Positions 10,070-55,526 of a stretch of DNA of 59,778 nt are shown one piece after another; positions within the stretch are counted from its first letter, which is position 1; every line of letters starts with the position of its first letter. Location: the sequence record OL960575.1, one strand, 5' to 3'. The translations under genes and the position numbers were made by a program. The notes under the pieces were generated by a model. That model made no database searches and was not told the origin of the DNA. It saw nothing but the letters and a program-made list of their open reading frames with translations. Source of the DNA: Escherichia phage vB_EcoS_SA80RD.

Positions 10070-10467
10070 AAGCGCGCAGACAGTTAATTGATAAGAAGAT
10101 CCTCCAATGGGAACTAAATAGCAAAGTCCCCGGCGGGGGATCTTCTTTATTATCGCAACTGCAAAAGGTTGAGGAACAGTCTGGTAAGACGCCGCCTAAG
10201 CTTAAAGAATATCGGGAAAAGGAAATACCGATTTGCTTTGAATACCTGTCTACTTTATTTGATGACATTTACACGGGAGGGGATTTTAGTTATACAGAAT
10301 TGCACAGCTATCAGGCAACAATGGGCTTACATCTTCAACCGTACGAATGCGAAATACTGCGGCAGCTATGGCTTGAAAAGCGCGTGTCTGAAGCTGAACA
10401 AAATGCTAAACTCATGGAAAGTCAAATGCAAAATCAAAATAAAGGTAGAAGAAAAAGGAGAAGATAA
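9662..10467 (+). CDS. tail assembly chaperone -1 frameshift fusion product (GT-like)
   Basis: Slippery heptamer T_TTT_TTC at 10060-10066; the -1 frame is open for 133 codons from 10066 to a TAA at 10465-10467 that overlaps the tape measure ATG. Frame checked codon by codon. Confidence 0.5.
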
Positions 10468-13400
10468 TGGCCGAAACCGCTTCGCTAGTAATCAGAGTTG
10501 ACGCGAGAGGGATTAGTACCGCGGACTCTATGTTGCGGAACTTAGCGCGTACAGGTGACACAGCGGAGCGGTCTGCTCAACGTGTTACCTCCAGCTATAA
10601 AACATTGTCTAACACATCTAACGAACTTGCAACTGTCACAAGTCGTTTGGATGCTGCAATTGTAGGAATGATTAGCGTTGACACTATTAGCCGTGTTATA
10701 TCGCTATCGGACTCCTGGACTATCCTCACCAACAAACTTGAACTGGCTCGTACGGGTAATGAAACTGTTGCGGATGCGCAGCAACGCGTGTTTGATATTG
10801 CCCAGCGGTCACGTACAAGCTTGGAAGCAACTGCAACTCTATATTCCCGTCTCCAGCGTGCAATGAAGAATACTGGTATGACTGGTATGGAGCTTGGACG
10901 TATCACTGAAACAATCAACAAAGCGATGATTGTTTCCGGTGCAACGTCACATGAAGCAAGCGCTGCCCTTATTCAGTTTTCGCAAGCAATGGCGTCCGGT
11001 GTTCTGCGTGGGGACGAATTCCGATCCGTTGCAGAACAAGCGCCCCGCTTAACTCAAATCATGTCCGATGCGTTAGGTGTTACCATTGGACAATTGCGTG
11101 AAATGGCTTACAGCGGCAAGTTAACCGCCGATGTGGTTATCAAATCGTTGTCCGGTGCTGCGGATACAATTGATAAAGAATTTAGCCGCACTATGCCAAC
11201 GTTCAACCAGCAATGGACGATTGCAACAAACAACCTGACTAAATTTATGGGTGAGTCCCAAAAGACTCAAGGTGCGGTTGCTGCATTGGGACAGACGTTT
11301 GTTGCATTATCCGAAAACTTAGGAACGGTTGTAACGGTTGGTTCAGCTTTAGCCACAGTGATTACTGCCCGTATCATTACGGCAATGCTTGCTAAGACTA
11401 AAGCGTCTATAGCTGCTGCAAAAGCATCACAGATGGAAGCTGCACAAACGGCGGCAACTACTGCGGTGATGCAAAGCTCTATTGGCGTTACCGCGCAGAA
11501 AGCGGCTGCGGATCGTGCTGCTTCGCTTGCAGCGTTACAGGTTGCTCGCGGGTCATTAGCGGTTGCTAAGGGTACGGCAGCGGAAGCAGGTGCACGTCTT
11601 GCGCTTATTAACGCTACCCGTGCGCATTCGGCAGCAATTATGGCGGACGTACAAGCGCGGCAAGCGCTCAATGCTGCGCTTAATGCAACTGTACCAGCCG
11701 CAAGCCGGGCAGCTACAGCAATGAGCGTGCTGCGCGGTGCTATGGGGTTAATTGGCGGTCCGGTTGGTGTAGCAATGCTGGCAGCGGGTGCAATTTACTC
11801 CTATAAAGCGTCATTGGAAGCTGGTCGTGCGGAAAACAATCAGTTTGCGGATAGTGTTGATACTGTACGCGATAAACTGATGCAGATGACAGAAGCTCAG
11901 TTGGCAGCTAACGCAGTTAAAGCTCGCGCAATTCTCCCCGAACTTGAAGAGCAAATGAAGCGGGAGCAAACTGCTCTTAAATCTGCAACGGAAACGCAGA
12001 AGTTCTATGAAGCACAATTAAAACGTCGTGCTGCGTCCGGTCGTGATACAGCCAGTGCTGAAAAGAATTTACAAATTGCAACGGATAACGTCAAGCTTGC
12101 TGCGGAGCGTGCTGAAGAAGCTCAACGCCGTTACAACAATGTCTTAGAAATGACAAGCCCTGCTATCGAGAAGATAATTCCGTTAGCTCGTCAGCTTGCT
12201 GCGGATATGAAAGCAGTGCTTAATATCAAATCCGGTCCGCTTATTGACGAGAAAGTGCTTGATCGTTTTAAAGGTCAGTTAGGTGACGTTAACCGCGAAA
12301 TTGATGTTAACACTGTTAAAGGTGCGGGTAATGCTCGCCAGGCCGCAATCCTTAGTGGGCTGTATCAAACTCTGGGCAAAGATGCAGACACCTACGGAAG
12401 TCTAATTCGCAAAGTAGCTATGGGGCAGGATGTTAGCTCTGAAGCAACAAGCGAGTCCGCAAAAGAACTTGTTAAATATGCTCAAGAGCTAGCGGAAGCT
12501 TACGGCAAGAATTATGATCTCGAGGAAGCGGAGCGGAACCGAACTAAAGCGACAAAAGACGGTATTAAAGCAGAACAACAGAACGCCAAAGTTATTGACG
12601 ATTTACGGAACAAGCTTAACGAAGTAACTACAGGAGTTAAAGAAAACGCTAAAGCTAAAGCGCAAGCTGTGGCGCTTAATAAGCTCAATGCGTCTGCAAC
12701 GGCTGCGGAAAAAGCGGAAGTTGTTAGTCTTGCTGCTGCAATCTACGATGCAGAAGAAGCTCAAAAGAAACTGGACGAGCGTAAGAAGAATCGTAAGTTT
12801 GCTCAGGGTCTGTTAGATGAAGGTATGACAGACTATGAAAAAATCGCGTACGAGCAAAATACTAAGATTGCTGAGCTTACTGCTAAACAACGAGCAGATG
12901 ACCTAGCTTACTATCAACTTTATGAGGATGCCAAAACTCAAGTCCTGAAGAAAGCAAGCATGGAAAGGGAAAATCTGGATAAAGTTCTTATGAACCGAAT
13001 GATATCCTTTTCTCAGGAATCCTTGGGTATTATACTGTCAGGGCTGGAAGAAGGTGTTAGTAAACAGAACTTTATTTATAAGGCAATGTTTGCTGCACAG
13101 AAAGCAATGCAAATCCCGTCAATCCTTGCCAACACGGAGACAGCGGCATCAGCGGCGCTTGCGTGGGGTACACAGCAAGGCGGTGCTACAATGGGCGCAG
13201 CTATGGCTGGTATAGTGAAAGCTATGGGTTATGCGTCTGCTGCTACTGTGGGTGGCTTAGCAATCGCTGGTATGGCGCATGACGGTATTGATAATGTTCC
13301 GCGCGAAGGTACATGGTTATTGGATAAAGGTGAACGTGTACTTAATGCCCCGTCTAATGACAAGTTAAACCGCTTCCTGGATAGCCAAGCTTCACAACAA

Positions 13401-32995: not shown

Positions 32996-33157
32996 TCACA
33001 GAGCTGTAATAATAGAATTCGGATGCTTGTTTCGAAAATCTTGCCATTCCGCAGAAAAGAAATAGTAAGCATCGCGCCGGATCTTTCTTTTATCCATATT
33101 CGGGTACAACTTAGTCATAACACGAATATGTGAACTAATGCGTTTTAGTTTTGTCAT
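32996..33157 (-). CDS. small basic hypothetical protein (53 aa)
   Basis: ATG overlaps the queE stop (TGATG) with GGGGTGGAG RBS; below the ORF-track size cutoff. Confidence 0.25.
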   Translation of the reverse strand: MTKLKRISSHIRVMTKLYPNMDKRKIRRDAYYFFSAEWQDFRNKHPNSIITAL

Positions 33158-44697: not shown

Positions 44698-45180
44698 TCA
44701 CAATCCGTGGTTACTATGAAAACCAAATTTAGTTTCAGCTTCTTTACGAGCACTAACCGCTTCTTCAAACGTATCGAAATAGCCAAGAAAGCGATATTTT
44801 AATTTTGAACGTATCTGCGCCCTCCATTTGCCTACTTTTTGTTCATAACTCACGCCAGTAACACCGGAAGTATTATTTTTCATCATACTTAAATTATGGC
44901 AGTTAATAGACCGATTAGCAAGACGCAGATTCTCTATCCTGTTATCAATCCTGTCATGATTTATATGGTCGATCTCATAACCTTCCGGTATAGGACCGTA
45001 GTGCATCTCATAAATTATACGATGTTCGAGATATTTCTTTCCTTTGTATTTAATTTTCCAATAACCAGAAGTTGAACATATACTGCCAGCCACCTTACCT
45101 GGTCTAGCTCTAGTACCGGATGAAATCTTCCATAATAATCTACCATCATAATATTCAAAGACATCAACCCAATTGATCAT
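44698..45180 (-). CDS. HNH-AP2 homing endonuclease
   Basis: EIDHINHDRIDNRIENLRL HNH motif and AP2-like C-terminus; ATG 45180 with AAGGAGG RBS. Confidence 0.7.
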   Translation of the reverse strand: MINWVDVFEYYDGRLLWKISSGTRARPGKVAGSICSTSGYWKIKYKGKKYLEHRIIYEMHYGPIPEGYEIDHINHDRIDNRIENLRLANRSINCHNLSMMKNNTSGVTGVSYEQKVGKWRAQIRSKLKYRFLGYFDTFEEAVSARKEAETKFGFHSNHGL

Positions 45181-45227
45181 ATTTACCTCCTTTATATGTA
45201 TTTTAATATGAAGTAAAATCAATCTCA

Positions 45228-45260
45228 ATAAAAAAAGCGCAACGTTTTCACGCTGCGCTT
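45228..45260 (-). terminator. rho-independent terminator (minus strand)
   Basis: AGCGCAGCG-loop-CGTTGCGCT (one G-U pair) followed by U7 on the minus strand. Confidence 0.6.
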
Positions 45261-45361: not shown

Positions 45362-45501
45362 GTTAAACATCGTTCACATCGTTCAGTAAGTTGCGGGTTT
45401 ACCCTGTCCGCTCCAGGAAGCCCAGCGAAAGTAGTTGCTGTAAGGAGGTACAGCTACCGCTTTCAAGGGCTTGAGTTAAGCATCGTTCACTAAGTTAATG
45501 T
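45362..45501. repeat. non-coding region with repeated GTTAARCATCGTTCA motif
   Basis: CATCGTTCA at 45368, 45378 and 45481; no ORF across about 300 bp; internal palindromes. Confidence 0.4.
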
Positions 45502-45565
45502 TGTTAAATTGTTAAACCTCGTTAACTGTGGTTATCTTAAAGGATGCAGTCTTGAATGGCAAGCT

Positions 45566-45880
45566 TCAATTTTGCGCGGTTCCCTTTGCCGCTTTTGGTG
45601 CTAAAGTACCATCATTTAACATCAACTCAAAACCTGTTACTTGATCGGTTGGAACAATAGGGTAATTCATGATAGCCATGTGGATACGACACCCTCCATC
45701 ACATTCATCGATGTATTCATTACCCCAATAGTATAAATGCCCATCTCTTCGAATATCCATTGCTGTCGGGAAGTCTACAAGAATTCTTTTGATTTCTTTT
45801 CGTCCTTCTTTATGCAGATTAGTTTCAATACGGATAAGCTCCGCATAAATTGCTTCACAGATAGTATTTACAATTCCCAT
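45566..45880 (-). CDS. hypothetical protein
   Basis: About 104 aa from ATG 45880 with AAAAGGCGGA RBS. Confidence 0.4.
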   Translation of the reverse strand: MGIVNTICEAIYAELIRIETNLHKEGRKEIKRILVDFPTAMDIRRDGHLYYWGNEYIDECDGGCRIHMAIMNYPIVPTDQVTGFELMLNDGTLAPKAAKGTAQN

Positions 45881-46206
45881 GACCAGTCCGCCTTTTCTGT
45901 TTCGTTGATACATTGTACAAGTTGATCAATACTTACATCAACGTATATTTTGCTATCTTTAAGCTCTTCTACGAATTGTTCCTCGCAACGAATTGGATTA
46001 TGTAAACTTCCAATCTCATATACTTGAACATGAGGGATAAGCGGCAAAAGATAAGTCCTTACCAGTTTAATTAAAACGTCATGTTCATCTCGTTCTTGTA
46101 AATCAATATCATTGTCTTCACAAAAATATTCGAGAATATCACCATCACCGAAGCCAAATTTACTTGCTAAACCATAAGCAAATAATCTTAGAACGTTATC
46201 TTTCAT
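45868..46206 (-). CDS. acidic hypothetical protein
   Basis: 112 aa with AAGGAG RBS. Confidence 0.45.
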   Translation of the reverse strand: MKDNVLRLFAYGLASKFGFGDGDILEYFCEDNDIDLQERDEHDVLIKLVRTYLLPLIPHVQVYEIGSLHNPIRCEEQFVEELKDSKIYVDVSIDQLVQCINETEKADWSWEL

Positions 46207-46403
46207 TAGTTACTCCTTAAGTTTTGAATCATTCTGTCGCAGGCAGCTTTTACAGAAGAGTTTTGCCAGTCTTCCTCGATTTGTAAAGGTTCTTCAGGTG
46301 AATAAGCAGCACTAATTAAGCACTGATTATAACCTTCAATATAAGCCTGCTTTGCGGTATCTATTATTGCTTGTAAAGCAATATTGAATAATTGTTGAGA
46401 CAT
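46206..46403 (-). CDS. hypothetical protein
   Basis: About 65 aa from ATG 46403 with GTGAGGTG RBS. Confidence 0.35.
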   Translation of the reverse strand: MSQQLFNIALQAIIDTAKQAYIEGYNQCLISAAYSPEEPLQIEEDWQNSSVKAACDRMIQNLRSN

Positions 46404-46411
46404 CTTACACC

Positions 46412-46486
46412 TCACAAAATATATGTAAACCAGAAATAACCAGCTACGAAAATAGCACCCGCAAATAATTTTAAAAGCTCGAACAT
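46412..46486 (-). CDS. candidate 24-aa hydrophobic micro-protein
   Basis: ATG preceded by CGGAGGGGAC; encodes MFELLKLFAGAIFVAGYFWFTYIL; below the ORF-track cutoff. Confidence 0.25.
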   Translation of the reverse strand: MFELLKLFAGAIFVAGYFWFTYIL

Positions 46487-46644
46487 TGTCCCCTCCGTTA
46501 ACTTTATGCTGTAAGTATAGCAGGACTTGTAATGTATGCAACAACTTTAGACTTGAAATACATCTATGAAATAGCACGATTTGCCTTTACCTCTGATCCG
46601 TCTAGCTGTACTATTAACCCATAAACAGAGCGGAGGATTACAAA

Positions 46645-46869
46645 ATGGTCATGCTGAATAAAGTATATAGCACAATGGGCGCGGATTATAAAGTTGTACG
46701 TCACCCGCGTACTGGTAAATTTGAAGCATACATCCGTCCAATGGGTGAAGGTTGGATGTATTACGGTACTTATGATGATGCTGAGCAAGCTTATAAAGAA
46801 GCGGAAAGTGCGGCGGAAGCATCCGAAATCATGGCAAGGTACGACGTCGATGATTACTATTTCAACTAA
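46645..46869 (+). CDS. hypothetical protein encoded opposite to the surrounding minus-strand genes
   Basis: 74 aa with GGAGGA RBS; ends at a bidirectional terminator. Confidence 0.45.
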   Translation: MVMLNKVYSTMGADYKVVRHPRTGKFEAYIRPMGEGWMYYGTYDDAEQAYKEAESAAEASEIMARYDVDDYYFN

Positions 46870-46873
46870 CAAT

Positions 46874-46900
46874 AAAGGGCCGAAAGGCCCTTTATTTATT
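46874..46900. terminator. bidirectional terminator
   Basis: AAAGGGCC-gaaa-GGCCCTTT followed by TATTTATTTG. Confidence 0.6.
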
Positions 46901-49232
46901 TGCTTAAGTCCTTGAAAACACTCTCAATTGACTCGTCTATATACCAACCCAATCCCCTGAAATTACGCTTCAACGCATCTTCACGCGTGACTGGAACGAG
47001 CGCACCCATGTCTACAAGTTGCTTGATGGTAAGGTCTGTTGCAGTACCTGCTCCCATCCTGTGATTCTTGAATGCTGCTAGACCGTAGGTTCTGCGTGTG
47101 ATAGTTGCCTTTGGAATAATACCGTCAACGCGCAGCTCCTTACGATCACATGCAATCTTACCGCCAAGATAGTCTTTGCAGACCTGACAGATAGCCTTCA
47201 CACGTGTTTCGTCATCACCGCCAATAGTACCTTTTTCCCATGCGTTGATCATGATGTCCTGTCCGTGCGTAACAAAATCTACCGCCCATTGCATGTCATT
47301 AGGTTGCACCACAGGATTGATCCAGTTTTCCCCCACCGCTAACAGTGACGCAAGACGTAGAGCTTTAAGGTGTGCACGGTTCCAAGGCTGACGGATTGCT
47401 TCGTCTTTGGTTGCGTTAATGTGTTCGTCACATAACAGGTTAAACTCCCGTTCAATCCTTTCAGCTTCAGGACTTAACTGGACTGTGACAGTTTGAAACT
47501 TCGCCATTGTTACTAAGGTGTGGTTAACAAGATGGCACACCATGTCCTTTAACTGCTGGGGCATTATAATCTCAGGGTTTTCGTTTGCAGGAACTCGATC
47601 TCCTTCATATTGCACAATGTGGAAACGGGACAAGAAACCGTCTTCCATCATTTCACGGGTTAATGCTTCAAAGAACGTGTCCGGCGTTGTTTCTCCCAGC
47701 ACGCTGAACGCCACCCCTTCCATCGTTTTGGTATTATTAGCCTTATCAGAATATCCGATACCGCCAACAACATCCATCGCACCAGATTTTTGATACACAT
47801 CTGTGATAGTTTGCTTCAGGGTATAGTTTGCAGTGCCAGGTTGAGCCGTTGCCATACCTTTAATGGTTTTGCCAAACTCGCCGTTAATATTCACAAACGA
47901 ACTATGATCCGCAAAACTTTTACGCAACGCAGGACCAGACGCATAGTTAGTCATGTCTACAAATTCATGAACTTGCGGTAATTGCTCCCCTACTTGTTTA
48001 CAAATATAGCTGGGCCCGGCGTGAAGCATCTCTTTACCCACACCAGATCGAGCAATAAGCACAAAATAACCGTTCAATCCTGTGTTGGTGATAGTATTCC
48101 ATACCTTACCGCACACACCAGACAGAAATGCTAACGATGCGGTGATTGCAATTTCTTTAACCGGACGCTGCGATGCTTTGTAGATATACTTTGCAAGCTC
48201 ACCAGCAAGCCCCGGCGGCCACTCAATAGCGGTTGCATCAATGGACGTACTTTCTGCAACTACTATTTCACCGGACGGGCTGACTGTGGTTACAGGCATT
48301 TCCGTTACTTGCTGCATTGTGCTGTGTGCGGCTTGCATACGGGCAGCGTAATCCCGCGCCAGCGCTGCTACGTTTTCCTGAGCAATACGCTCACGCTCCA
48401 TGCGACCGCGACACATACGCAAGCAACGGTCAATATGAACATTGTTCTTATTAGCCTTCTCACGTTTGCCCAGTGCACTATAACGGAACAGACGACGACA
48501 TTGCTCATTACTTTCCGTGTAGAATGCATACATAGAAATAAGGGCAAGGTCTGCTTCAGACTGGGAAGGGAATCCCATTTCAACCCATTCACCGTTAAAT
48601 AACCGTGCATACTTATCGCCGTTATCTGCTTCAAGCGCACGCTGATGAATAGTTGCATCATCTTCTACCGGATCTTTTTCTACCAGTTCAATTTCATATG
48701 TCTTGCGCTGAAGATCAATTTCATTCACAAGCATAGTAAGGTAATGATCACGTTCTGCAACTGGTTTGTTGTACACAGGATTACCAGTGCAGATAATAAA
48801 ACGCTCCTGACTATAAACCTCGACACCATCACGTCGACGGCCTTTACCGATGTTACCTCTTAACCACAGGTGAACACCCAAGCCTGAGCGACTCACTTCG
48901 GTGTAAGTATCGAACGCAGTCATGATCTGTTCGAAGCGGCGCAACTGCTCCGGCGTCGTGTGCTTCTTGGGGTCCGGTTCATTGGTTGCATTCTTCACAT
49001 CCAGATCAATGCAGGTGAACGGGTCTTGTGCAGTAAGCACGAAGCCAATATAAGGTTTATTGAAATGAGCGGCGCAACCTTTGGCAGCTTCAAACGTCAT
49101 AAGCATATCCGGATCGGTAACGTCCGCCGCCATCAAACGTCCGATATCGTTATCCCATATTAATGGGCGTTTATCTTCACCAGCAATAGCCCACTGATTG
49201 TATTGTTTGATTTCATCAGGAAATAATTTCAT
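46896..49232 (-). CDS. primase-polymerase / helicase (AEP-type primase with SF3-like ATPase)
   Basis: N-terminal GVHLWLRG prim-pol-like motif; central ARSGVGKE Walker A; ATG 49232 (track start 49241 is GTG). Confidence 0.65.
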   Translation of the reverse strand: MKLFPDEIKQYNQWAIAGEDKRPLIWDNDIGRLMAADVTDPDMLMTFEAAKGCAAHFNKPYIGFVLTAQDPFTCIDLDVKNATNEPDPKKHTTPEQLRRFEQIMTAFDTYTEVSRSGLGVHLWLRGNIGKGRRRDGVEVYSQERFIICTGNPVYNKPVAERDHYLTMLVNEIDLQRKTYEIELVEKDPVEDDATIHQRALEADNGDKYARLFNGEWVEMGFPSQSEADLALISMYAFYTESNEQCRRLFRYSALGKREKANKNNVHIDRCLRMCRGRMERERIAQENVAALARDYAARMQAAHSTMQQVTEMPVTTVSPSGEIVVAESTSIDATAIEWPPGLAGELAKYIYKASQRPVKEIAITASLAFLSGVCGKVWNTITNTGLNGYFVLIARSGVGKEMLHAGPSYICKQVGEQLPQVHEFVDMTNYASGPALRKSFADHSSFVNINGEFGKTIKGMATAQPGTANYTLKQTITDVYQKSGAMDVVGGIGYSDKANNTKTMEGVAFSVLGETTPDTFFEALTREMMEDGFLSRFHIVQYEGDRVPANENPEIIMPQQLKDMVCHLVNHTLVTMAKFQTVTVQLSPEAERIEREFNLLCDEHINATKDEAIRQPWNRAHLKALRLASLLAVGENWINPVVQPNDMQWAVDFVTHGQDIMINAWEKGTIGGDDETRVKAICQVCKDYLGGKIACDRKELRVDGIIPKATITRRTYGLAAFKNHRMGAGTATDLTIKQLVDMGALVPVTREDALKRNFRGLGWYIDESIESVFKDLSK

Positions 49233-49233
49233 C

Positions 49234-49758
49234 TTATACACCCAATTTGTTACAACCGTGGTTCTTGTGAAAATTGTGATCAGTTAATGCTTTACTTACA
49301 GCCATCTGTGCATCTTCAAAAGTATCATATACTCCAAGATATTTTGAAGTCCCGTCCACGCCTATACGAGCTTGCCATTTATTAGTACCTTTGTGAAATG
49401 TAACTCCATTTACTCCAGAGGTATTATTGCGTTTCTTACTTTGATTTCGACCATTTTCTTTGTGAGTAACTAAACGCAAGTTTTCAATGCGGTCGTCGTA
49501 ACGAACGTGATTAATATGATCAATTTCCATCCCTTCCGGTATAGGACCGTTGAACATTTCCCATACTATTCGTGAACGACGATATAGTTTACCATTAAGG
49601 GTAATACGAACATATCCTTTATCCGTAAGCGTACCTGCAACGCATCCTTCTTTTGCTCTTGCACCCATATCTTTCTTCCAATACAACACTCCTTCATTAT
49701 ATTGGAATACTACCGCCCATTGTGGGAAAGCTTTAATTTCAGCGGGAAACAGTTCCAT
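49234..49758 (-). CDS. HNH-AP2 homing endonuclease
   Basis: EIDHINHVRYDDRIENLRL plus AP2-like C-terminus ending ...HKNHG. Confidence 0.7.
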   Translation of the reverse strand: MELFPAEIKAFPQWAVVFQYNEGVLYWKKDMGARAKEGCVAGTLTDKGYVRITLNGKLYRRSRIVWEMFNGPIPEGMEIDHINHVRYDDRIENLRLVTHKENGRNQSKKRNNTSGVNGVTFHKGTNKWQARIGVDGTSKYLGVYDTFEDAQMAVSKALTDHNFHKNHGCNKLGV

Positions 49759-49764
49759 ATTTAA

Positions 49765-49968
49765 TTAAGACCTCCGACGCTTATCGCCTTGCATCTTTTC
49801 CAGGACGGGTTCTGCTAATGAACGTTTATAGATGTACACGCTACCGATTTTAATAGCGCCGGGAATGCATTCGCGCATTCTGGAGAGCTTAAATTTTGAA
49901 ATACCGAACTGGTTTTCAATTTCGGTAGTTGTTATATAGTTGTCATTAAATTCTTCGACGTGGGTCAT
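49765..49968 (-). CDS. small helix-turn-helix DNA-binding protein (putative transcriptional regulator)
   Basis: 67 aa; ITTTEIENQFGISKFKLSRM resembles an HTH; strong AAGGAGGAG RBS. Confidence 0.45.
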   Translation of the reverse strand: MTHVEEFNDNYITTTEIENQFGISKFKLSRMRECIPGAIKIGSVYIYKRSLAEPVLEKMQGDKRRRS

Positions 49969-50029
49969 AGCTCCTCCTTTGTCCGCACACTATACACAGA
50001 TAAGAGGAGCCATTGCAATGCGTTTTGCG

Positions 50030-50776
50030 TTACAGGATATGGGGGCAATAATATTTATCCATAACAAACTGAAAAACTTCTTCAGGTGTGCGGTCATTAC
50101 GAAGTTCAATCATATGATTGTCCAGCCATGCTAAACTCTCCTCAGCCTTATCTCTATTATTAAAGTGCAATAGCTTTGAAGGTGTATCGCCAGGAAGGGT
50201 AACTTCAATACAAAATGAACCTGTTTCTAAATGCGTTATGTCGCAAGTCGGCCAAACGCCGCGGTTTTCCCATATAGAAGGCGCATCCTCAAATCTGCAT
50301 GAGCTATACCATTTATTGCGAAGAGATGTGATCTCCTTACTTGTTAACGGGGCGCCCTTAACTCTTTCATGTTCCTCCAGCCAAGCTTTAAATTTTGGGT
50401 TAGGTTTGCGCCCCGGCTTCCCACCTTTCGCCTTTGCGCTTTCTTTAAACGCTTGCTCGTATGGGTCTGATCCTTTGCCCATGTGGTAATTGAATTTGCC
50501 CGTATAGCTGCGAAGCTCTTTGGCGTCCAGTTCATGTCCCAGCTTATCGCTCACCCATGCAAGGAAAGCTTCCCGCTCTGCATCCAGCTTTCCCGCTTTC
50601 GGTCTTACAGATTTTTTAACTGGCTGCTCCACATCCTCGTTGAAGTAATCTTCCACCATAGCAAGCGCCTGTGATTTGGTTGGTGCACCACGCAACCGTG
50701 AGCACGCTTGCACAACCCAAGCCGCGAAGCACATATCCTTAACCACAGTCTTTGAGGTAATAATTTCTTCACTCAT
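50030..50776 (-). CDS. hypothetical protein (first gene downstream of the iteron region)
   Basis: About 249 aa from ATG 50776 with GGTGG RBS. Confidence 0.45.
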   Translation of the reverse strand: MSEEIITSKTVVKDMCFAAWVVQACSRLRGAPTKSQALAMVEDYFNEDVEQPVKKSVRPKAGKLDAEREAFLAWVSDKLGHELDAKELRSYTGKFNYHMGKGSDPYEQAFKESAKAKGGKPGRKPNPKFKAWLEEHERVKGAPLTSKEITSLRNKWYSSCRFEDAPSIWENRGVWPTCDITHLETGSFCIEVTLPGDTPSKLLHFNNRDKAEESLAWLDNHMIELRNDRTPEEVFQFVMDKYYCPHIL

Positions 50777-50863
50777 AATCCACCTATACGCGTAGAAAGA
50801 AAGGTAATCATATAACAAAGTTTTTGTAATCGCAAAACCTTCGCAAAACTTTGTCTTTCCTGC

Positions 50864-50892
50864 ATTATATTAAACCATAGTGCTAGTGGCCA
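50864..50892 (-). promoter_or_regulatory. candidate sigma70-type promoter (minus strand), TGGCCA-17-TATAAT
   Basis: On the minus strand: -35 TGGCCA (50887-50892), 17-bp spacer, -10 TATAAT (50864-50869); spacer overlaps an ATAGTG iteron. Confidence 0.35.
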
Positions 50893-51105
50893 GCATAGTG
50901 GCATCACCGCTTATAGTGCGCCGTTACTGGCTTCGCTATAGTGTGCCACTATACGTGCACTATACACTAATAGCTAATTTTATTTTTGTTAGCGGTAATA
51001 AAGTTTTGGGTTTTTGGGGGGACCCCCTAATATACCCCGGAAAAAACAAAGAAATAGTAGTAGTAGTGAAAACATAGTGAAATGCCACTATCTCACTATC
51101 ACTAC
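50877..51105. repeat. iteron cluster: ATAGTG / GCCACTAT hexamer-octamer repeats in both orientations
   Basis: ATAGTG at 50877, 50895, 50913, 50938, 51074; CACTAT at 50947, 50958, 51086, 51094; lies in a 660-bp ORF-free region with an AT-rich stretch (51180-51270) and a G6-A-C5 tract (51015-51027). Confidence 0.6.
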
Positions 51106-51372
51106 TAATTTAATGTAATTTATGGGGGTGTCTATGTACCAAAAACCTAAAACTTTCAGTCAACAGACTAAAAACGGATAGAAACTAAAAGTTAATAAGT
51201 AATACCATAAATATATATAAAATAAGGATTTATTAATAATGTATATAGTACCTATTGGTATTATTTGAATGTTTTTGGGTCTGCAACAAAAAGTCGCAAA
51301 ACTCACAAAACCTGAACGGATGCAGATCAAAAACGAGAAGTCAAGTGCTTTTGAGGGAAATTTATTGAACTA

Positions 51373-51402
51373 TTGTGATCGGAAGGTATATCAAGCTATA
51401 AT
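51373..51402 (+). promoter_or_regulatory. candidate sigma70-type promoter (plus strand), TTGTGA-18-TATAAT
   Basis: -35 TTGTGA 51373-51378, -10 TATAAT 51397-51402; would read antisense to the minus-strand early genes. Confidence 0.3.
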
Positions 51403-51486
51403 GCGCTTAATCGCGGGATATTGGAGGAGGACTTTATTGCGCGGTTAACCGGACCAGTAGGAGGGCTGGCCCGGAGTAGTTAGAAT

Positions 51487-51663
51487 TTATTTGCGGACGA
51501 ATACAGATCCGACAAATAATGTTGATTGGGTAGCAGCTTGCTCGATTAATTCGCCAACAAGCTGTGATTGAGTAAGAGGTCGTAAACCTTCTTTGGCGCG
51601 TGCTTCATTTACACGACGTTGAAGGTCTTTTAAGTATTGAGTTGCGAAACTATCTAATTGCAT
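51487..51663 (-). CDS. small hypothetical protein (58 aa)
   Basis: ATG with AAGGATAAGAA upstream; translates to MQLDSFATQYLKDLQRRVNEARAKEGLRPL...; below the ORF-track cutoff. Confidence 0.3.
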   Translation of the reverse strand: MQLDSFATQYLKDLQRRVNEARAKEGLRPLTQSQLVGELIEQAATQSTLFVGSVFVRK

Positions 51664-51835
51664 TTCTTATCCTTAGGGCTCCCGCAGAAGCCCGTCAGTG
51701 AACAGTGTGGTTATAGATTATGCCAGTGAGTACCTTGCTTTTAATTTTTGGTTTGCTGCGATAATTTTACATACAGGTATAACAACCAGAAGATCATTAT
51801 ACTCCAGCCAGAATTGAATGAGCGCCTGCATTTAA

Positions 51836-52450
51836 TTAACCCTCCAAGCCGTTATATTTGCGCCAGGCGTAGAACTGAATGGCTACCGTCGTCCCGTTGT
51901 AAGAAGGCATTGCAGCTTTCATTTCTTTCAGCTCCGGCGTGCGGCCCAGTTCCTTCAGAAGCTTGTCGCCCATTGCCCACACTTCGGCAGTTTTTCCTTT
52001 CAGGGGCTTGCGAGCGCCATTTTTGAAATCACAGCGAGCAGCTTTTGCATCCTGTTTTGGCGCGGCAGCTTTTGGCTCTTCAATTTTGATTTCAGAAACC
52101 TGCGTGGCAGCTTTTGCGTGTTTCATATCTTTCTCTTCCTCCTGCTCCAGAGCTTCGAGGCAGCTTTTGACGATTTCCGGATTTACCATCGGGCGCAGTA
52201 CCGAGACGCTGGCAGCTGGCGCGGCGGTCGGTGCTGGGACTTTTTGCTCCGGCTGTTGCGCTTTTTTATGGTCGTGCAGTACCTGAAGCACTTCCTTCTC
52301 GACGATGTAAAAACCGATCTCGTCCTGATGGATTAGCTGTTCGTGCGCATCGCGTGCAACCTGGCCCCAGCGGGTCTTAAGAGCGCGGCGTGCATTCGTT
52401 TTCATGGTGTAGCGCATTTTATCCTGTTCGCGGTGAGTTACTTTAGACAT
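51836..52450 (-). CDS. hypothetical early protein
   Basis: 204 aa with GAGGAA RBS. Confidence 0.45.
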   Translation of the reverse strand: MSKVTHREQDKMRYTMKTNARRALKTRWGQVARDAHEQLIHQDEIGFYIVEKEVLQVLHDHKKAQQPEQKVPAPTAAPAASVSVLRPMVNPEIVKSCLEALEQEEEKDMKHAKAATQVSEIKIEEPKAAAPKQDAKAARCDFKNGARKPLKGKTAEVWAMGDKLLKELGRTPELKEMKAAMPSYNGTTVAIQFYAWRKYNGLEG

Positions 52451-52534
52451 GGTATATTCCTCTGTTAGATTGTTTAGTTGTCTTGCTAAGTTGACTTATT
52501 ATTGCCCAGTCAGATTAACTAGGCAAGATATAAA

Positions 52535-52687
52535 TCACTTAATTTGTACTAAATCGTATTCCTTGTAGATGTCGCTAATGTACATGTCGAACTGTCCCAT
52601 TAAGAAGATTTCAGCCTCCTCCCAGCTTGGAGCAGATACATAACCAGCTATTTTACCGGACGCGAGTTCCACTAATTTGAATTCCAT
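52535..52687 (-). CDS. small hypothetical early protein
   Basis: 50 aa from ATG 52687 with AAGGG RBS. Confidence 0.3.
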   Translation of the reverse strand: MEFKLVELASGKIAGYVSAPSWEEAEIFLMGQFDMYISDIYKEYDLVQIK

Positions 52688-52774
52688 GATGCAACCCTTA
52701 ATGTGGTTAAGCAGTATTGCTTTGTTGAAGTAATAATAGCCTTGCATCGTGATATTGAATAGGCCAAAAGTGCT

Positions 52775-52802
52775 ATTTTAGAATAGTTTTGCATCTAGTG
52801 AA
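52775..52802 (-). promoter_or_regulatory. candidate early promoter (minus strand), TTCACT-16-TAAAAT
   Basis: Read on the minus strand in the divergent intergenic region 52688-53222. Confidence 0.3.
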
Positions 52803-53222
52803 AATTATGTTTGCCCTGCATGTTTAGCACAAATGGCCTAACTAACATCACATCATCTGGAGTATTCGCACGGGCGCACACATACATATAAAGCTGCCAA
52901 AATATTTTTATAAAAAGATGCAAAAGGTGTAGACACATGATCGATCTAGCGCTACTATATATTCAAAGGAAAGGGAAGCAGAAGTGCAAAGTACCAATCC
53001 TGAGTAGTAAGGTTAGGGAAAGCTGAATAGCTAAAGTACTTAACAGCTAATCGGAAGGTGAATCGTCCGGATGAAAAAGGCCGGCAAGTGTTGAGAAAGG
53101 GCACGTTGAGTAAGTCTCGAAAAGAGGCGCTCCAAGACACCTTCTCCGACTTTACGAAGATCGGGACCTTCCGGGATTAGCGTGTAATAACATATAATTG
53201 GTCAACTTAAGAGACAAATACT

Positions 53223-53366
53223 ATGGCACGCAAATACACACTTACACGCGCACAGCACGCTAAATTAGCTGAAGCAATGAAGATTCAATATAAAGCTTAC
53301 GGTTGGCGCTCTGCAATGGACTTCGGTCGTGCAATGTATCAAGCAATGGTTGGAGGTGCAAAATGA
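53223..53366 (+). CDS. small hypothetical protein (47 aa)
   Basis: First plus-strand ORF after the divergent region; stop overlaps next start (ATGA). Confidence 0.25.
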   Translation: MARKYTLTRAQHAKLAEAMKIQYKAYGWRSAMDFGRAMYQAMVGGAK

Positions 53367-53692
53367 AACGTCTATTGATTGCTACTTTGTTTGCTGGTGT
53401 ATTCGCAGTCAATAGTTGTGAAGCTGCGGATGCTGTGGTAGATGCGTATAGCTGTAAAGCCTTAGTGGCGGAGCTTATTAAACAAGATAACTATAAGAAT
53501 AAAACCACGCTTGATAATGAGGTTGCTTATTGTCAGACTGTAAAAAGATTATTTTTAAACGGTCAATATCGAAATGTTGAACAAGTTAATAATATTCTTC
53601 GTGACCGTTTTGGAGCGGACTATGAGGCTCGCAAGCATTATCTGGCGTTAGCCACTGCGGCAATGCTTGCAGCTCACATTAATAAAGAGTGA
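53363..53692 (+). CDS. secreted hypothetical protein
   Basis: ATG 53363 with GGAGG RBS; signal-peptide-like MKRLLIATLFAGVFAVNSCEA; the ORF-track start upstream is unsupported. Confidence 0.45.
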   Translation: MKRLLIATLFAGVFAVNSCEAADAVVDAYSCKALVAELIKQDNYKNKTTLDNEVAYCQTVKRLFLNGQYRNVEQVNNILRDRFGADYEARKHYLALATAAMLAAHINKE

Positions 53693-53723
53693 TAACAATT
53701 TAATATTAAACTGTGAGGTCACT

Positions 53724-53813
53724 ATGAATCACTGGAAGATAATATTATCACTGATATTGTATAGTGTGTTACTATGTGCTATCCATTATGCAATAATTAA
53801 CCACATTGAATAA
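53724..53813 (+). CDS. candidate 29-aa hydrophobic micro-protein
   Basis: ATG with GTGAGGT RBS; MNHWKIILSLILYSVLLCAIHYAIINHIE. Confidence 0.25.
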   Translation: MNHWKIILSLILYSVLLCAIHYAIINHIE

Positions 53814-53883
53814 CGCACACAGCGCCACGCTAGTGAGCTAATGTACATAGGTAATGGTAATGCATTAGCTCGGGCGAAACAGG

Positions 53884-53930
53884 CGCACAGCGTCGCGCAC
53901 AGCTCGCACAGCGCACACAGACCCACGCAG
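53884..53930. repeat. GC-rich imperfect tandem repeat (CGCACAG)n
   Basis: CGCACAG at 53884, 53896, 53905, 53912 in an otherwise AT-rich intergenic region; the overlapping track ORFs on both strands look spurious. Confidence 0.5.
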
Positions 53931-54138
53931 GCCCAGCCGCGCAACCCGACCCCACCTTTTCCGAGTACTTGGATCGGTAGGGCGTGCCCTGTCTATCCTG
54001 ATAGTAACACACGCTTGAAATTCTAACCATCACATACCCCACCTACCATAAAAAGTGACCCTTAGGAGTTTCACGCTTTCTATATACTGGGTTTAGTGCT
54101 AAAATATAGGTGATGTAAACTTGATCAGAGGCATTGAA

Positions 54139-54621
54139 ATGAACTGGAATGAAATATTTGAATACAAAGACGGTGTTTTGTATTGGAAACATAACAGACG
54201 GGGTGGTAGAGGTATAAAGATAGGCGACAGTGCAGGTAGTAGACTTCAAACCGGATACACGCAGATTGTATTTGAAGGCGAACACTACTTGCGGCACCAC
54301 ATAGTGTGGTTAATGCACGGTAGATGTATACCAAAAGGTATGGAAATAGATCATATTGACCATGACCGTCAAAATGACCGAATTGAAAATTTAAGATTGG
54401 TAACAGCATCTGAAAATAGTAGAAATAAAAGTAAGCCTATGACAAATAAATCTGGTGTTGTTGGTATAACTTGGCATAAACGCGATCTTAGATGGCAAGC
54501 GCATATTAAAATTGATGGCAAGAAACTATATCTAGGATATTTTGATAACTTTAATGATGCAGTTAAAGCACGAAAGGAAGCGGAATTGCTGTATAATTTC
54601 CACGAAAACCACGGTAAATGA
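54139..54621 (+). CDS. HNH-AP2 homing endonuclease
   Basis: EIDHIDHDRQNDRIENLRL plus AP2-like C-terminus ...FHENHG; ATG 54139 with AGAGG RBS (track start is TTG). Confidence 0.7.
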   Translation: MNWNEIFEYKDGVLYWKHNRRGGRGIKIGDSAGSRLQTGYTQIVFEGEHYLRHHIVWLMHGRCIPKGMEIDHIDHDRQNDRIENLRLVTASENSRNKSKPMTNKSGVVGITWHKRDLRWQAHIKIDGKKLYLGYFDNFNDAVKARKEAELLYNFHENHGK

Positions 54622-54640
54622 TGGTTAAGCGGAGGAAATT

Positions 54641-54826
54641 GTGAGACTTGGACCTTATCTTGGTTTCTATGGACGTGCTTTTTGGAATGATGAAACAAAT
54701 AGGTTTGAAGGTTGGCTAATCACACCTGATCGTTTTACATTTCACTCCGTAAAAGAGAAAAATATCGTTCTTAATTTTCAAAAATGTGTCACTAAATATG
54801 TAGAGGAGCAAGAAGAATGCGTTTAA
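54641..54826 (+). CDS. hypothetical protein (GTG start)
   Basis: 61 aa; GTG start 4 nt after GGAGGA. Confidence 0.3.
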   Translation: MRLGPYLGFYGRAFWNDETNRFEGWLITPDRFTFHSVKEKNIVLNFQKCVTKYVEEQEECV

Positions 54827-55056
54827 AGCATAAGCAAAAGTTTGTAGAATACTTCGGGATGCAAATTGTTGTTCCGGAATGGGTTAAATGGCTTGCTGTT
54901 GATGGCGATGGGGAACTGTACGGTTATGAATGCGAGCCTGACATTTTAGTTGATGAACCGTGGGACGAATGGTACACCGAAGAAGGTAAATCCCGATGGA
55001 TTGCAGACGTTATCCTTGAAGAACATTGGTCACAAACCTTAGTGGAGCTTTTTTAA
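54817..55056 (+). CDS. small acidic Trp-rich protein (paralog A)
   Basis: 79 aa; shares W..AVDGDGELYGYECEPD pattern with the 55154 gene. Confidence 0.4.
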   Translation: MRLKHKQKFVEYFGMQIVVPEWVKWLAVDGDGELYGYECEPDILVDEPWDEWYTEEGKSRWIADVILEEHWSQTLVELF

Positions 55057-55074
55057 AATTCATATGGCACATTA

Positions 55075-55103
55075 TTGACTCAATTTCCTGGAAGAAGTAT
55101 AAT
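55075..55103 (+). promoter_or_regulatory. candidate sigma70 promoter TTGACT-17-TATAAT
   Basis: -35 TTGACT 55075-55080, -10 TATAAT 55098-55103, followed by a short hairpin and the GGAGG RBS of the next gene. Confidence 0.45.
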
Positions 55104-55153
55104 TATCAATCTATAATGGGCTCTACGGAGCCCTTAATTATCTGGAGGTTGTT

Positions 55154-55450
55154 ATGCTGTATTTAGGAATGGACGAAACTGGACACGCAATTCCTTCTGT
55201 TAACAAGGAGACGCAAGTATTTACTAACTATTACGGGTCTGCTGTCCCTGTTGAGCCGTGGGCTAACTTTATCGCTGTAGACGCAGACGGTAAAGTTCAT
55301 TGTTATGACGCCAAACCTTCTTGCTATGAATCTGGTAAGCAATGGATGCTTGGAGTATACGGTTTGCATGTTCGCTACTGCGGTGAAGTTGATCTTGAAG
55401 GTGTGGACTGGCGCGATACGTTGAAGGAGATTAAAGATGTCCGCGGCTGA
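55154..55450 (+). CDS. small protein (paralog B of 54817 gene)
   Basis: 98 aa; WANFIAVDADGKVHCYDAKP. Confidence 0.45.
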   Translation: MLYLGMDETGHAIPSVNKETQVFTNYYGSAVPVEPWANFIAVDADGKVHCYDAKPSCYESGKQWMLGVYGLHVRYCGEVDLEGVDWRDTLKEIKDVRG

Positions 55451-55523
55451 AGTTACGACATTTATAATAGCTTTTGCTGTTGCTTTATTCTTTATAGCTA
55501 AGTTAGATTTATTTATTGGGTGA
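55437..55523 (+). CDS. candidate 28-aa hydrophobic micro-protein
   Basis: ATG with AAGGAGA RBS, overlapping the end of the previous gene in another frame; MSAAEVTTFIIAFAVALFFIAKLDLFIG. Confidence 0.3.
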   Translation: MSAAEVTTFIIAFAVALFFIAKLDLFIG

Positions 55524-55526
55524 CTT

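Follow-up and report, generated by a model that had tools for sequence, protein, structure and literature searches.

We analyzed a stretch of 59,778 nucleotides (nt) from Escherichia phage vB_EcoS_SA80RD (OL960575.1; the entire stretch is referred to below as the window), with a focus on seven small open reading frames (ORFs), denoted A to G. An earlier note, made from the sequence alone, had described several of these as tiny hydrophobic ORFs that possess strong ribosome-binding sites and fall below the standard ORF cutoffs. All seven ORFs, with their starts, peptides and Shine-Dalgarno (SD) sequences, are present where that note had placed them (Table 1). The description as sub-cutoff ORFs applies to A, B, C and G, which are unannotated in the SA80RD record, and has to be withdrawn for D, E and F, which are ordinary annotated genes; similarly, the hydrophobic character was borne out for A, B and C and not for G. 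Our principal conclusion, to which we assign a probability of roughly 0.7, is that A, B, C and G most likely are genuine translated genes, the first three for membrane peptides of about one helix each and the last one for a soluble, charged peptide.

The source of SA80RD is cattle feces from South Africa (PMC6956337). The phage belongs to the genus Seuratvirus (Queuovirinae): a megablast search with positions 45500-56500 yielded 44 phage records, nearly all of them Seuratvirus coliphages, with 88-96% identity over mosaic pieces. The genome starts with the terminase and structural genes, followed by a leftward block of replication and 7-deazaguanine genes, a rightward accessory block and the terminal lysis cassette. 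ORFs A, B, C and G are located outside the lysis module, on either side of the primase region, in two divergent blocks that consist of small accessory genes.

Table 1. Coordinates of the small ORFs, their leaders and the neighboring genes in the SA80RD window (aa, amino acids; SD, Shine-Dalgarno sequence)
Feature	Position	Strand	Description
ORF A	46412-46486	minus	ATG start, 24 aa, MFELLKLFAGAIFVAGYFWFTYIL; predicted single membrane helix LFAGAIFVAGYFWFTYIL; first cistron of leftward operon
Leader and promoter-like sequence of A	46487-46545	minus	SD; extended -10 TGcTATACT at 46514-46522; weak -35 TTGCAT at 46536-46541
65-aa gene downstream of A	46206-46403	minus	PHROG 36709; SD TGAGGTG overlaps the stop of A
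ORF B	53724-53813	plus	29 aa, MNHWKIILSLILYSVLLCAIHYAIINHIE; predicted single membrane helix IILSLILYSVLLCAIHYAI; SD GTGAGGT at 53713-53719
109-aa gene	53363-53692	plus	constant upstream partner of B; signal-peptide-like N-terminal segment MKRLLIATLFAGVFAVNSCEA
ORF C	55437-55523	plus	28 aa, MSAAEVTTFIIAFAVALFFIAKLDLFIG; predicted single membrane helix VTTFIIAFAVALFFIAKL; SD AAGGAG at 55424-55429
ORF G	55714-55785	plus	GTG start, 23 aa, charged, amphipathic; SD AAGGAGG at 55701-55707
SLOG (YAcAr, PF10686) gene	55785-56177	plus	130 aa; immediately after G
ORF D	32996-33157	minus	53 aa, basic; annotated as SA80RD_46
ORF E	51487-51663	minus	58 aa; annotated as SA80RD_72; counterpart of CPT_Seurat64
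ORF F	53223-53366	plus	47 aa; annotated as SA80RD_76; PHROG 37795 (E=3.9e-15)
Control ORF	46532-46624	plus	30 aa; same intergenic region as A, covers the divergent promoter region
Lysis cassette	58.3-59.8 kb		endolysin-like ORF ending at 58771; holin; overlapping i- and o-spanin-like ORFs at 59133-59769
Holin	58808-59152		PHROG 785 (E=8e-25), PF16083

Conservation and selection in ORFs A, B, C and G

The comparison set included 16 GenBank Seuratvirus loci, 4 loci from IMG/VR and 5 loci from metagenomes; the latter were contributed by a metagenome scan with a primase profile and are all close relatives. The targeted additions to this set were STP-SP5, SPJ41, SLUR76, Vid5 and three contigs that carry ORF B (L035-L037). 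Selection was assessed with a site test, which compares the changes at synonymous and non-synonymous sites in the ORF's own frame with those in the two shifted frames, and with pairwise omega, the Nei-Gojobori ratio of non-synonymous to synonymous substitution rates (dN/dS), again for the own frame and the shifted frames. In each of the four ORFs, the start, stop, length and SD are preserved in the relatives, and an excess of synonymous changes is confined to the ORF's own frame. The lack of conserved reading frames in relatives, which the earlier note had named as refuting, was not observed, and its suggestion that these are real micro-protein genes is in line with the conservation of both the frames and the SDs; the comparative evidence shows A, B, C and G to be genes, as judged from the aligned sequences.

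ORF A follows the SD sequence GGAGGGG (46490-46496), which lies 3 nt before the ATG (5 nt when counted from the GGAGG core). It is intact, with 24 codons, ATG and GGAGGG, in all 26 related loci that cover the region and in 36 GenBank records, and is, judging from this distribution, a core gene of the genus Seuratvirus. Across 18 haplotypes, the site test yielded 19 synonymous and 13 non-synonymous changes (P=3e-5; 25% synonymous changes are expected at a transition bias of 3), compared to 4/26 and 5/26 in the shifted frames (P=0.99 and 0.95, respectively). Salmonella phage STP-SP5 encodes a syntenic 24-codon ortholog, MFEFVKIFASVIFIALYFWLMYWV, with 64% nucleotide identity and an omega of 0.145, as opposed to 0.92 and 1.88 in the shifted frames. 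The residues M1, F2, E3, K6, F8, A9, I12, F13, A15, Y17, F18, W19 and Y22 are invariant in this family, which is recognizable by the length of 24 codons, the motif MFE-x-[LV]-K...YFW...Y and the position as the first cistron beside the primase-adjacent divergent promoter.

The family probably extends to Pantoea phage vB_PagS_Vid5, the primase of which is 53% identical to that of SA80RD. Vid5_gp59 shares the place of A, after a small gene beside the primase and first on the diverging strand. It is annotated as a 44-aa 'hypothetical protein', with no function assigned, that starts at an upstream TTG; its final 24 codons, which begin with an internal ATG behind GGGGGG (MGYILSLISSGLFAFAYFYIVWWL), align with A without gaps. 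Although just 6-8 of the 24 residues are identical to those of A variants, the register-specific, ungapped BLOSUM62 score of this segment against the A variants is 40.5, compared to -1.7 +/- 10.6 for shuffled sequences (P=3e-4), and its homology to A is probable. The IMG/VR scan detected no A beyond the known Seuratvirus contigs, and no relatives of A were found across 185,579 bacterial and archaeal species genomes. Among the 36 carrying GenBank records, A is annotated in one only, that of phage CSP1, where CSP1_063 (UniRef100_A0AB33CJ70), a 24-aa 'hypothetical protein' with no function assigned, is 87.5% identical to A and occupies the same position.

ORF C, which was traced among the relatives by DNA alignment, overlaps, as the earlier note pointed out, the preceding gene in another frame, sharing the last 14 nt of a 98-aa gene (55154-55450); its stop codon lies 3 nt before the next ATG. 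C is present and intact in 11 of the 21 Seuratvirus loci and otherwise is cleanly missing as a block of ~77 nt, such that, in the loci that lack it, the upstream gene continues into the start of the next gene. The edges of this cassette match the ORF and its SD, with conserved genes on both sides. The omega of C is 0.14, compared to 3.1 and 2.0 in the shifted frames, and the site test gave 11 synonymous and 9 non-synonymous changes (P=0.008; 0.94 and 0.97 for the shifted frames). Scanning IMG/VR for C returned only contigs that were already in the comparison set. The 28-aa proteins CPT_Seurat76 (YP_009152020.1) and CSP1_042, both hypothetical with no function assigned, are orthologs of C, with 82-89% identity and the same flanking genes; in most other Seuratvirus records that carry C, such as those of WildeMaa and Skure, it was left unannotated. 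As a separate observation, the gene that follows the position of C in most relatives (Seurat77-like; 10429-10653 in locus L002) encodes an N-terminal hydrophobic helix, MRLLMVLGVILAAFVVFAIV..., and is replaced in SA80RD and CSP1 by an unrelated gene for a soluble 64-aa protein (55527-55721 in SA80RD).

All 21 Seuratvirus loci and 33 GenBank records have an intact ORF G. Most relatives have an ATG one codon upstream that overlaps the previous stop (ATGGTGA); SA80RD has TTG at this position, and its GTG is located 6 nt after AAGGAGG. The stop codon overlaps the ATG of the SLOG gene (TAATG). Diverged copies were found in Skure (VIEQHMQHWKDFIEEMLKPLEKK) and in STP-SP5 (MVIDKEISYWSYFITEMLK...), where G is annotated as a 31-aa coding sequence (CDS). 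The site test detected 8 synonymous and 8 non-synonymous changes (P=0.018; 0.58 and 0.55 for the shifted frames), and nucleotide conservation is 96.6%, compared to 96.5% for the next gene.

ORF B is far rarer in our comparison: no DNA homolog was detected in the first 19 loci, and the IMG/VR scan was empty as well. The five copies available, namely, SA80RD, SLUR76/SLUR26 (identified with tblastn) and the metagenome contigs L035-L037, all encode 29 aa and have the same SD, GTGAGGT, 4 nt upstream in every copy, L036 with its diverged spacer included. The omega values range from 0.13 to 0.35, and the site test gave 15 synonymous and 22 non-synonymous changes (P=0.028; 0.56 and 0.89 for the shifted frames). 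B is unannotated in every record examined and appears to be new to annotation. The 109-aa gene upstream of B has four homologs (70-93% identity), each followed by a 29-codon B; on this pattern of co-occurrence, the gene for this secreted-looking protein and B form a two-gene cassette in which B comes second. The 109-aa protein produced no Pfam or PHROG match, and its AlphaFold2 model is all-helical, with low confidence (predicted local distance difference test score, pLDDT, of 51.6).

The DNA after B shows features of its own. About 300 nt (53808-53928 and on to ~54120), just before an HNH-AP2 homing endonuclease gene, are non-coding and include an inverted repeat of 9 nt, GAGCTAATG/CATTAGCTC, in addition to four repeats of the GCGCACAGC type. 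Of the 15 matching related loci, 14 show 94-97% conservation over the first 34 nt of this stretch, and KS_A3 shows 82%, despite different upstream genes.

By composition alone, the excess of small hydrophobic ORFs is mild: four ORFs with a length of 20-40 aa combine a hydrophobic window of 15 residues with an SD core that spans 5 nt or more, compared to 0.9 +/- 0.9 (maximum of 4) in 40 dinucleotide shuffles, and it is the comparative evidence that is decisive. A systematic pass over the 45.2-56.3 kb region identified 12 small SD-bearing ORFs outside genes, among which a coding signature is confined to A, C and G; for B, the tblastn-derived set is required. The control ORF, which shares the intergenic region of A, is intact in 24 loci and yet shows 4 synonymous vs 19 non-synonymous changes. 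The exact peptides of A, B, C and G are absent from a collection of 15 billion proteins that does hold the annotated proteins of SA80RD, and PHROGs v4 yielded no family for A, C or G, the best match for B being phrog_11878 at E=0.056.

The leader of ORF A, the downstream slot and horizontal transfer

The arrangement TTGCAT-16 nt-TGcTATACT in front of A, read from the sequence, is conserved in all relatives, with the version TGcTATAAT in STP-SP5, and could function as a promoter. The leader together with ORF A folds no better than shuffled sequences (z=+1.09), and no fold that would occlude the SD was found, leaving this strong SD exposed. The B region is equally unremarkable (z=-0.06), and Rfam produced no match across the whole window; given these folding scores and the lack of Rfam matches, there is no competing RNA explanation.

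The TGA of A sits within the SD of the next gene, TGAGGTG (TTG TGA GGTG ... ATG), 8-9 nt before its ATG. Between phages, homology ends at the ATG of this next gene. The slot after A is occupied by seven or more unrelated genes in different phages, with the promoter-like sequence, A and the SD held constant while the following gene is swapped. The junction between A and the next gene is kept before most of the downstream genes, the exceptions being the variant with an HNH endonuclease, which has a TAG stop, and CSP1. In the three cases with an HNH endonuclease directly after A (SA126VB, STP-SP5 and L030), A ends with ...YWL or ...YWV and TAG rather than with ...YIL and TGA. Three ORFs for homing endonucleases of the HNH-AP2 type are present within a 10-kb part of SA80RD (44698-45228, 49234-49758 and 54121-54621).

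The constant part also occurs outside the genus. Seuratvirus phiG7 and the Felixounavirus Salmonella phage vB_SalM_SPJ41 share, with 95% identity, a 280-nt unit (2402-2681 in L021, the SPJ41 locus; 46401-46584 in SA80RD) in which the promoter-like sequence and A are followed by the next SD and the initial 33 codons of one downstream gene (MKIELEVIEGQ...); the unit is found in SWJM-02 as well. In these two Felixounavirus myophages, this unit lies between an HNH endonuclease and DNA ligase. It looks like the unit moved recently, by horizontal transfer, between unrelated phage families.

An alternative gene model for this locus, a 123-aa ORF with a GTG start on the minus strand (46206-46577), was considered and rejected: it crosses the promoter-like sequence, its omega is ~1.9, and it accumulated 5 synonymous and 26 non-synonymous changes. 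A 372-nt CDS annotated in KS_A8, KS_W4, SeppeHuegi and KurtStettler is the equivalent of this ORF; it passes through A in a different frame and most likely represents a false N-terminal extension of the 65-aa gene. The frame would be open only because hydrophobic codons carry T in the second position, which bars stops in the +2 frame.

Properties of the peptides, possible functions and alternative explanations

The single membrane-helix-like composition that the earlier note attributed to A, B and C held up: each contains a stretch of 18-19 residues with a summed insertion free energy of about zero or below, the best windows scoring +0.1 (A), -0.87 (B) and -0.61 kcal/mol (C) on the Hessa biological scale. 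The grand average of hydropathy (GRAVY) of the three peptides is 1.16-1.82, so that each is compatible with one membrane helix, and the composition points to a location in the membrane. G, with a GRAVY of -0.74 and a Hessa window sum of +17.9, is not hydrophobic. B combines a basic N-terminus (MNHWK) with an acidic or neutral C-terminus, which suggests an N-in, C-out topology; A and C are without a clear charge bias. Chains of 24-29 residues are released before emerging from the ribosome, and therefore membrane insertion of these peptides must be post-translational.

The promoter-like sequence and the gene neighborhood point to early expression of A, B and C. In the scheme that we consider most plausible, the host RNA polymerase and ribosomes would produce the peptides early; once released from the ribosome, the peptides, too short for co-translational targeting, would insert into the inner membrane and act there on membrane-bound components of the host or the phage. 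Candidate roles include host take-over, exclusion of superinfecting phages and the countering of membrane-associated defense effectors. None of the specific roles offered in the earlier note finds support here; a toxin or a modulator of a host transporter is possible. In a more specific version, which is possible although doubtful, A would be the effector of a portable cassette of promoter, microprotein and ribosome-binding site that heads an early accessory operon in all Seuratvirus and probably in Vidquintavirus, and has already jumped to Felixounavirus, with a specific early function such as the neutralization of a membrane-anchored defense effector or the blocking of DNA entry by competing phages; under the same scenario, B would combine with the secreted 109-aa protein into an envelope module of two components.

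Knockouts in the sister phage DruSM1, assembled as a library, placed anti-defense activities in the neighborhood of these genes: deletion of ORF65 reduced plating on hhe and Druantia hosts, the DprA/Smf-like ORF83 counters AVAST type III, and ORF84 and ORF85 were implicated as well (bioRxiv 10.1101/2024.04.14.589459). ORF65 is the 74-aa gene located across the divergent promoter region from A. From the description 'Smf/DprA Rossmann fold' given in the same study (bioRxiv 10.1101/2024.04.14.589459), we infer that ORF83 corresponds to the SLOG gene that follows G.

Small inner-membrane proteins of the AcrZ, KdpF, MgtS, MgrB and CydX type comprise fewer than 50 aa, with one hydrophobic helix and a strong SD, and annotation frequently overlooks them. 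A, B and C show no sequence similarity to these E. coli proteins and, at 24-29 aa, are shorter than most of them. Fremin, Bhatt and Kyrpides (2022, Cell Reports; cited in PMC11364881) reportedly described unannotated small phage genes, many of which encode predicted transmembrane helices. Surveys of small genes in phages and, for intergenic small ORFs, in enterobacteria (PMC11188072) have recovered, by comparative genomics, conserved ORFs of less than 50 codons in the gaps left by gene callers, and the ac gene of phage T4 has been described as acting on the AcrAB-TolC efflux pump (PMC13250531). A, B, C and G are of this familiar kind, small phage genes overlooked by gene callers, with no pointer to a new mechanism, and the orthologs of A, C and G are already in GenBank as hypothetical proteins. 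Beyond the ordinary are the genus-wide conservation of A, its fixed position as the first cistron before interchangeable genes, its probable reach to Vid5 and its transfer, with a promoter-like sequence, into Felixounavirus.

Several observations weigh against the interpretation of A, B, C and G as genes for early membrane or soluble peptides. Most of the relatives are 90-97% identical, so that independent substitutions are few, and the samples are small, with 5 sequences of B and 6 haplotypes of C. The selection signal in G is only weakly frame-specific by pairwise omega (0.35 vs 0.43 in one of the shifted frames). The hydrophobic window of A is marginal on the Kyte-Doolittle scale because the peptide is rich in Gly, Tyr and Trp: at ~1.7 over 15 residues, calculated by hand, it fell short of the cut-off of 2.0 used in the ORF scan. 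A simple consensus promoter scan did not call the site upstream of A, the -35 element of which matches the consensus in 3 of 6 positions. A is absent beside the primase in Nonagvirus JenP2 and in Pseudomonas phage PaMx25 (Nipunavirus) and, therefore, is not essential to the wider subfamily. Finally, A, C and G fall outside the DruSM1 knockout library because they are unannotated in that phage.

An alternative for A and G is that they are cis-acting leader or bridging ORFs, whose translation matters, for coupling or for keeping the mRNA open, and whose peptides do not. The architecture of the junctions fits this possibility: the stop of A lies within the next SD at a spacing of 8-9 nt that is kept before most of the downstream genes, G in most relatives starts on the previous stop and ends on the next start, and A and its promoter form a single unit that always moves together. 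A stop that abuts the next gene is found in A, G and C, and fails to be found in B, with its ~300 nt of non-coding DNA. Nevertheless, we regard this explanation as unlikely, considering that the amino acids themselves are under purifying selection (omega of 0.145 for A and 0.14 for C; P=3e-5 in the site test of A), that the length and hydrophobic character of A are kept in STP-SP5 and Vid5 at nucleotide identity of 64% or less, and that the downstream genes have strong SDs of their own, which no RNA structure sequesters (z=+1.09). A 24-codon nascent chain never leaves the ribosome tunnel, which makes the sensing of insertion by an arrest peptide in the manner of SecM or MifM implausible. Very unlikely, in our assessment, is the more radical possibility that all these ORFs are chance frames in conserved regulatory or recently shared DNA, with no functional product. 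The high identity of most relatives lets frames stay open by descent, 4-26% of random substitution sets simulated for single pairs keep the start, stop and openness of the frame, the control ORF is intact in 24 loci while carrying no coding signature, and composition yields just 4 such ORFs against 0.9 expected. Chance frames are hard to reconcile with the frame-specific synonymous excess that is seen in all four ORFs and neither in the shifted frames nor in the control ORF, with the diverged orthologs that have the same boundaries at 64-78% nucleotide identity (A in STP-SP5 and B in L036), and with the discrete cassette of C, the edges of which coincide with the ORF and its SD.

Two further readings concern the function of the peptides. 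Known type I toxins are about the size of the peptides considered here, consisting of a single hydrophobic helix with short polar ends, and A, B and C resemble TisB, IbsC, ShoB, ZorO and DinQ in length (24-29 aa) and composition (GRAVY of 1.16-1.82). The three could act on the inner membrane as TisB, Ibs, Hok or Zor toxins do, by depolarizing or permeabilizing it, for host shut-off or superinfection exclusion. Such a role is quite unlikely given that no known toxin or antitoxin RNA family reaches the Rfam gathering score in the whole window, and that promoter-like sites on the opposite strand inside B are at the chance level (34 vs 26.6 +/- 5.1 in shuffles). Unlike type I toxins, A has a constitutive-looking promoter and an open, unstructured leader in which the strong SD is exposed rather than occluded, and neither an antisense RNA of a known family nor a translational lock, as in toxin mRNAs, was found, a novel small RNA being conceivable; furthermore, an early collapse of the proton-motive force would be expected to harm the lytic phage's own replication. 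The antiholin-like role proposed in the earlier note belongs to a broader class of explanations, in which A, B and C are holin-, antiholin- or pinholin-like regulators that time or modulate lysis. A single hydrophobic helix, as in some antiholins, is present in each of the three, and in Seuratvirus CSP1 a single-pass membrane protein takes part in a suppression of lysis that depends on the holin (PMC13577005). None of the three ORFs adjoins the lysis cassette, however: the holin lies 3.3 kb from C and 5 kb from B, and 12 kb separate it from A, which is on the opposite strand and behind a sigma-70-like promoter. The lysis genes were located directly in SA80RD because the GenBank locus tags of CSP1 do not match the numbering of the holin and endolysin in the paper. 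In CSP1, antiholin activity was mapped near the tail fiber, to a minimal lysis-suppression set, CSP1_020-022, that excludes the orthologs of A and C, and CSP1_063 (A) and CSP1_042 (C) go unmentioned in that paper (PMC13577005). A paper on daunorubicin, in which Seuratvirus is mentioned as well, has no bearing on A, B or C. The CSP1 mapping, together with the distance from the cassette, disfavors the antiholin idea, and we consider lysis regulation by A, B or C extremely improbable.

The preferred interpretation of A, B, C and G as small genes has practical consequences, although conserved unannotated small membrane peptides are common in phage genomes. It amends gene annotation throughout a genus of therapeutic and model coliphages that includes the Seuratvirus members of the BASEL collection: A is overwritten in four records by the false N-terminal extension of the next gene, the B family has never been annotated, and the neighboring 46532-46624 ORF is annotated while lacking a coding signature. 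In addition, the four candidates are short and easily synthesized, and would be a cheap addition to anti-defense screens of this neighborhood.

Other small ORFs and repeats in the window

Among the annotated small genes, ORF D has four homologs of 53-54 aa with 74-100% identity. The slot between queE and the next gene, in which D resides in SA80RD, is variable: it is empty in KurtStettler and holds a 255-nt gene in Seurat. The control ORF (46532-46624) is annotated as a CDS in WildeMaa (bas23_0067), Dru_SM1 (PH_ORF69) and KS_A3; considering the pattern of substitutions described above, it probably is not a gene. Its position over the divergent promoter region could explain why the 'PHORF69' deletion in DruSM1 mimicked the loss of ORF65, the adjacent anti-hhe gene.

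The composition count includes, as its fourth member, a 37-aa ORF on the minus strand (51718-51831) with the strong SD GGAGGG that was missed by the earlier note. It is intact in Seurat, in phiG7, where it is annotated as phiG7_75, and in one IMG/VR contig, with 4 synonymous vs 3 non-synonymous changes, numbers too small for a verdict, and is not convincing as a membrane helix. A 61-aa ORF on the plus strand (57341-57526; PHROG 22841) contains two hydrophobic segments and is located ~1.3 kb upstream of the holin; A, B and C all lie farther from the lysis genes than the gene for this small membrane protein.

Finally, the 53040-53200 region contains an element of ~135 nt between the arms of a 15-nt imperfect inverted repeat, GCTAATCGGAAGGTG ... 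ACCTTCCGGGATTAGC, with an RNA folding z of about -1.9 on either strand. Positions 53056-53148 within this element show 86-94% identity to unannotated DNA of the unrelated phages Rtp and vB_EcoM-LTH01.

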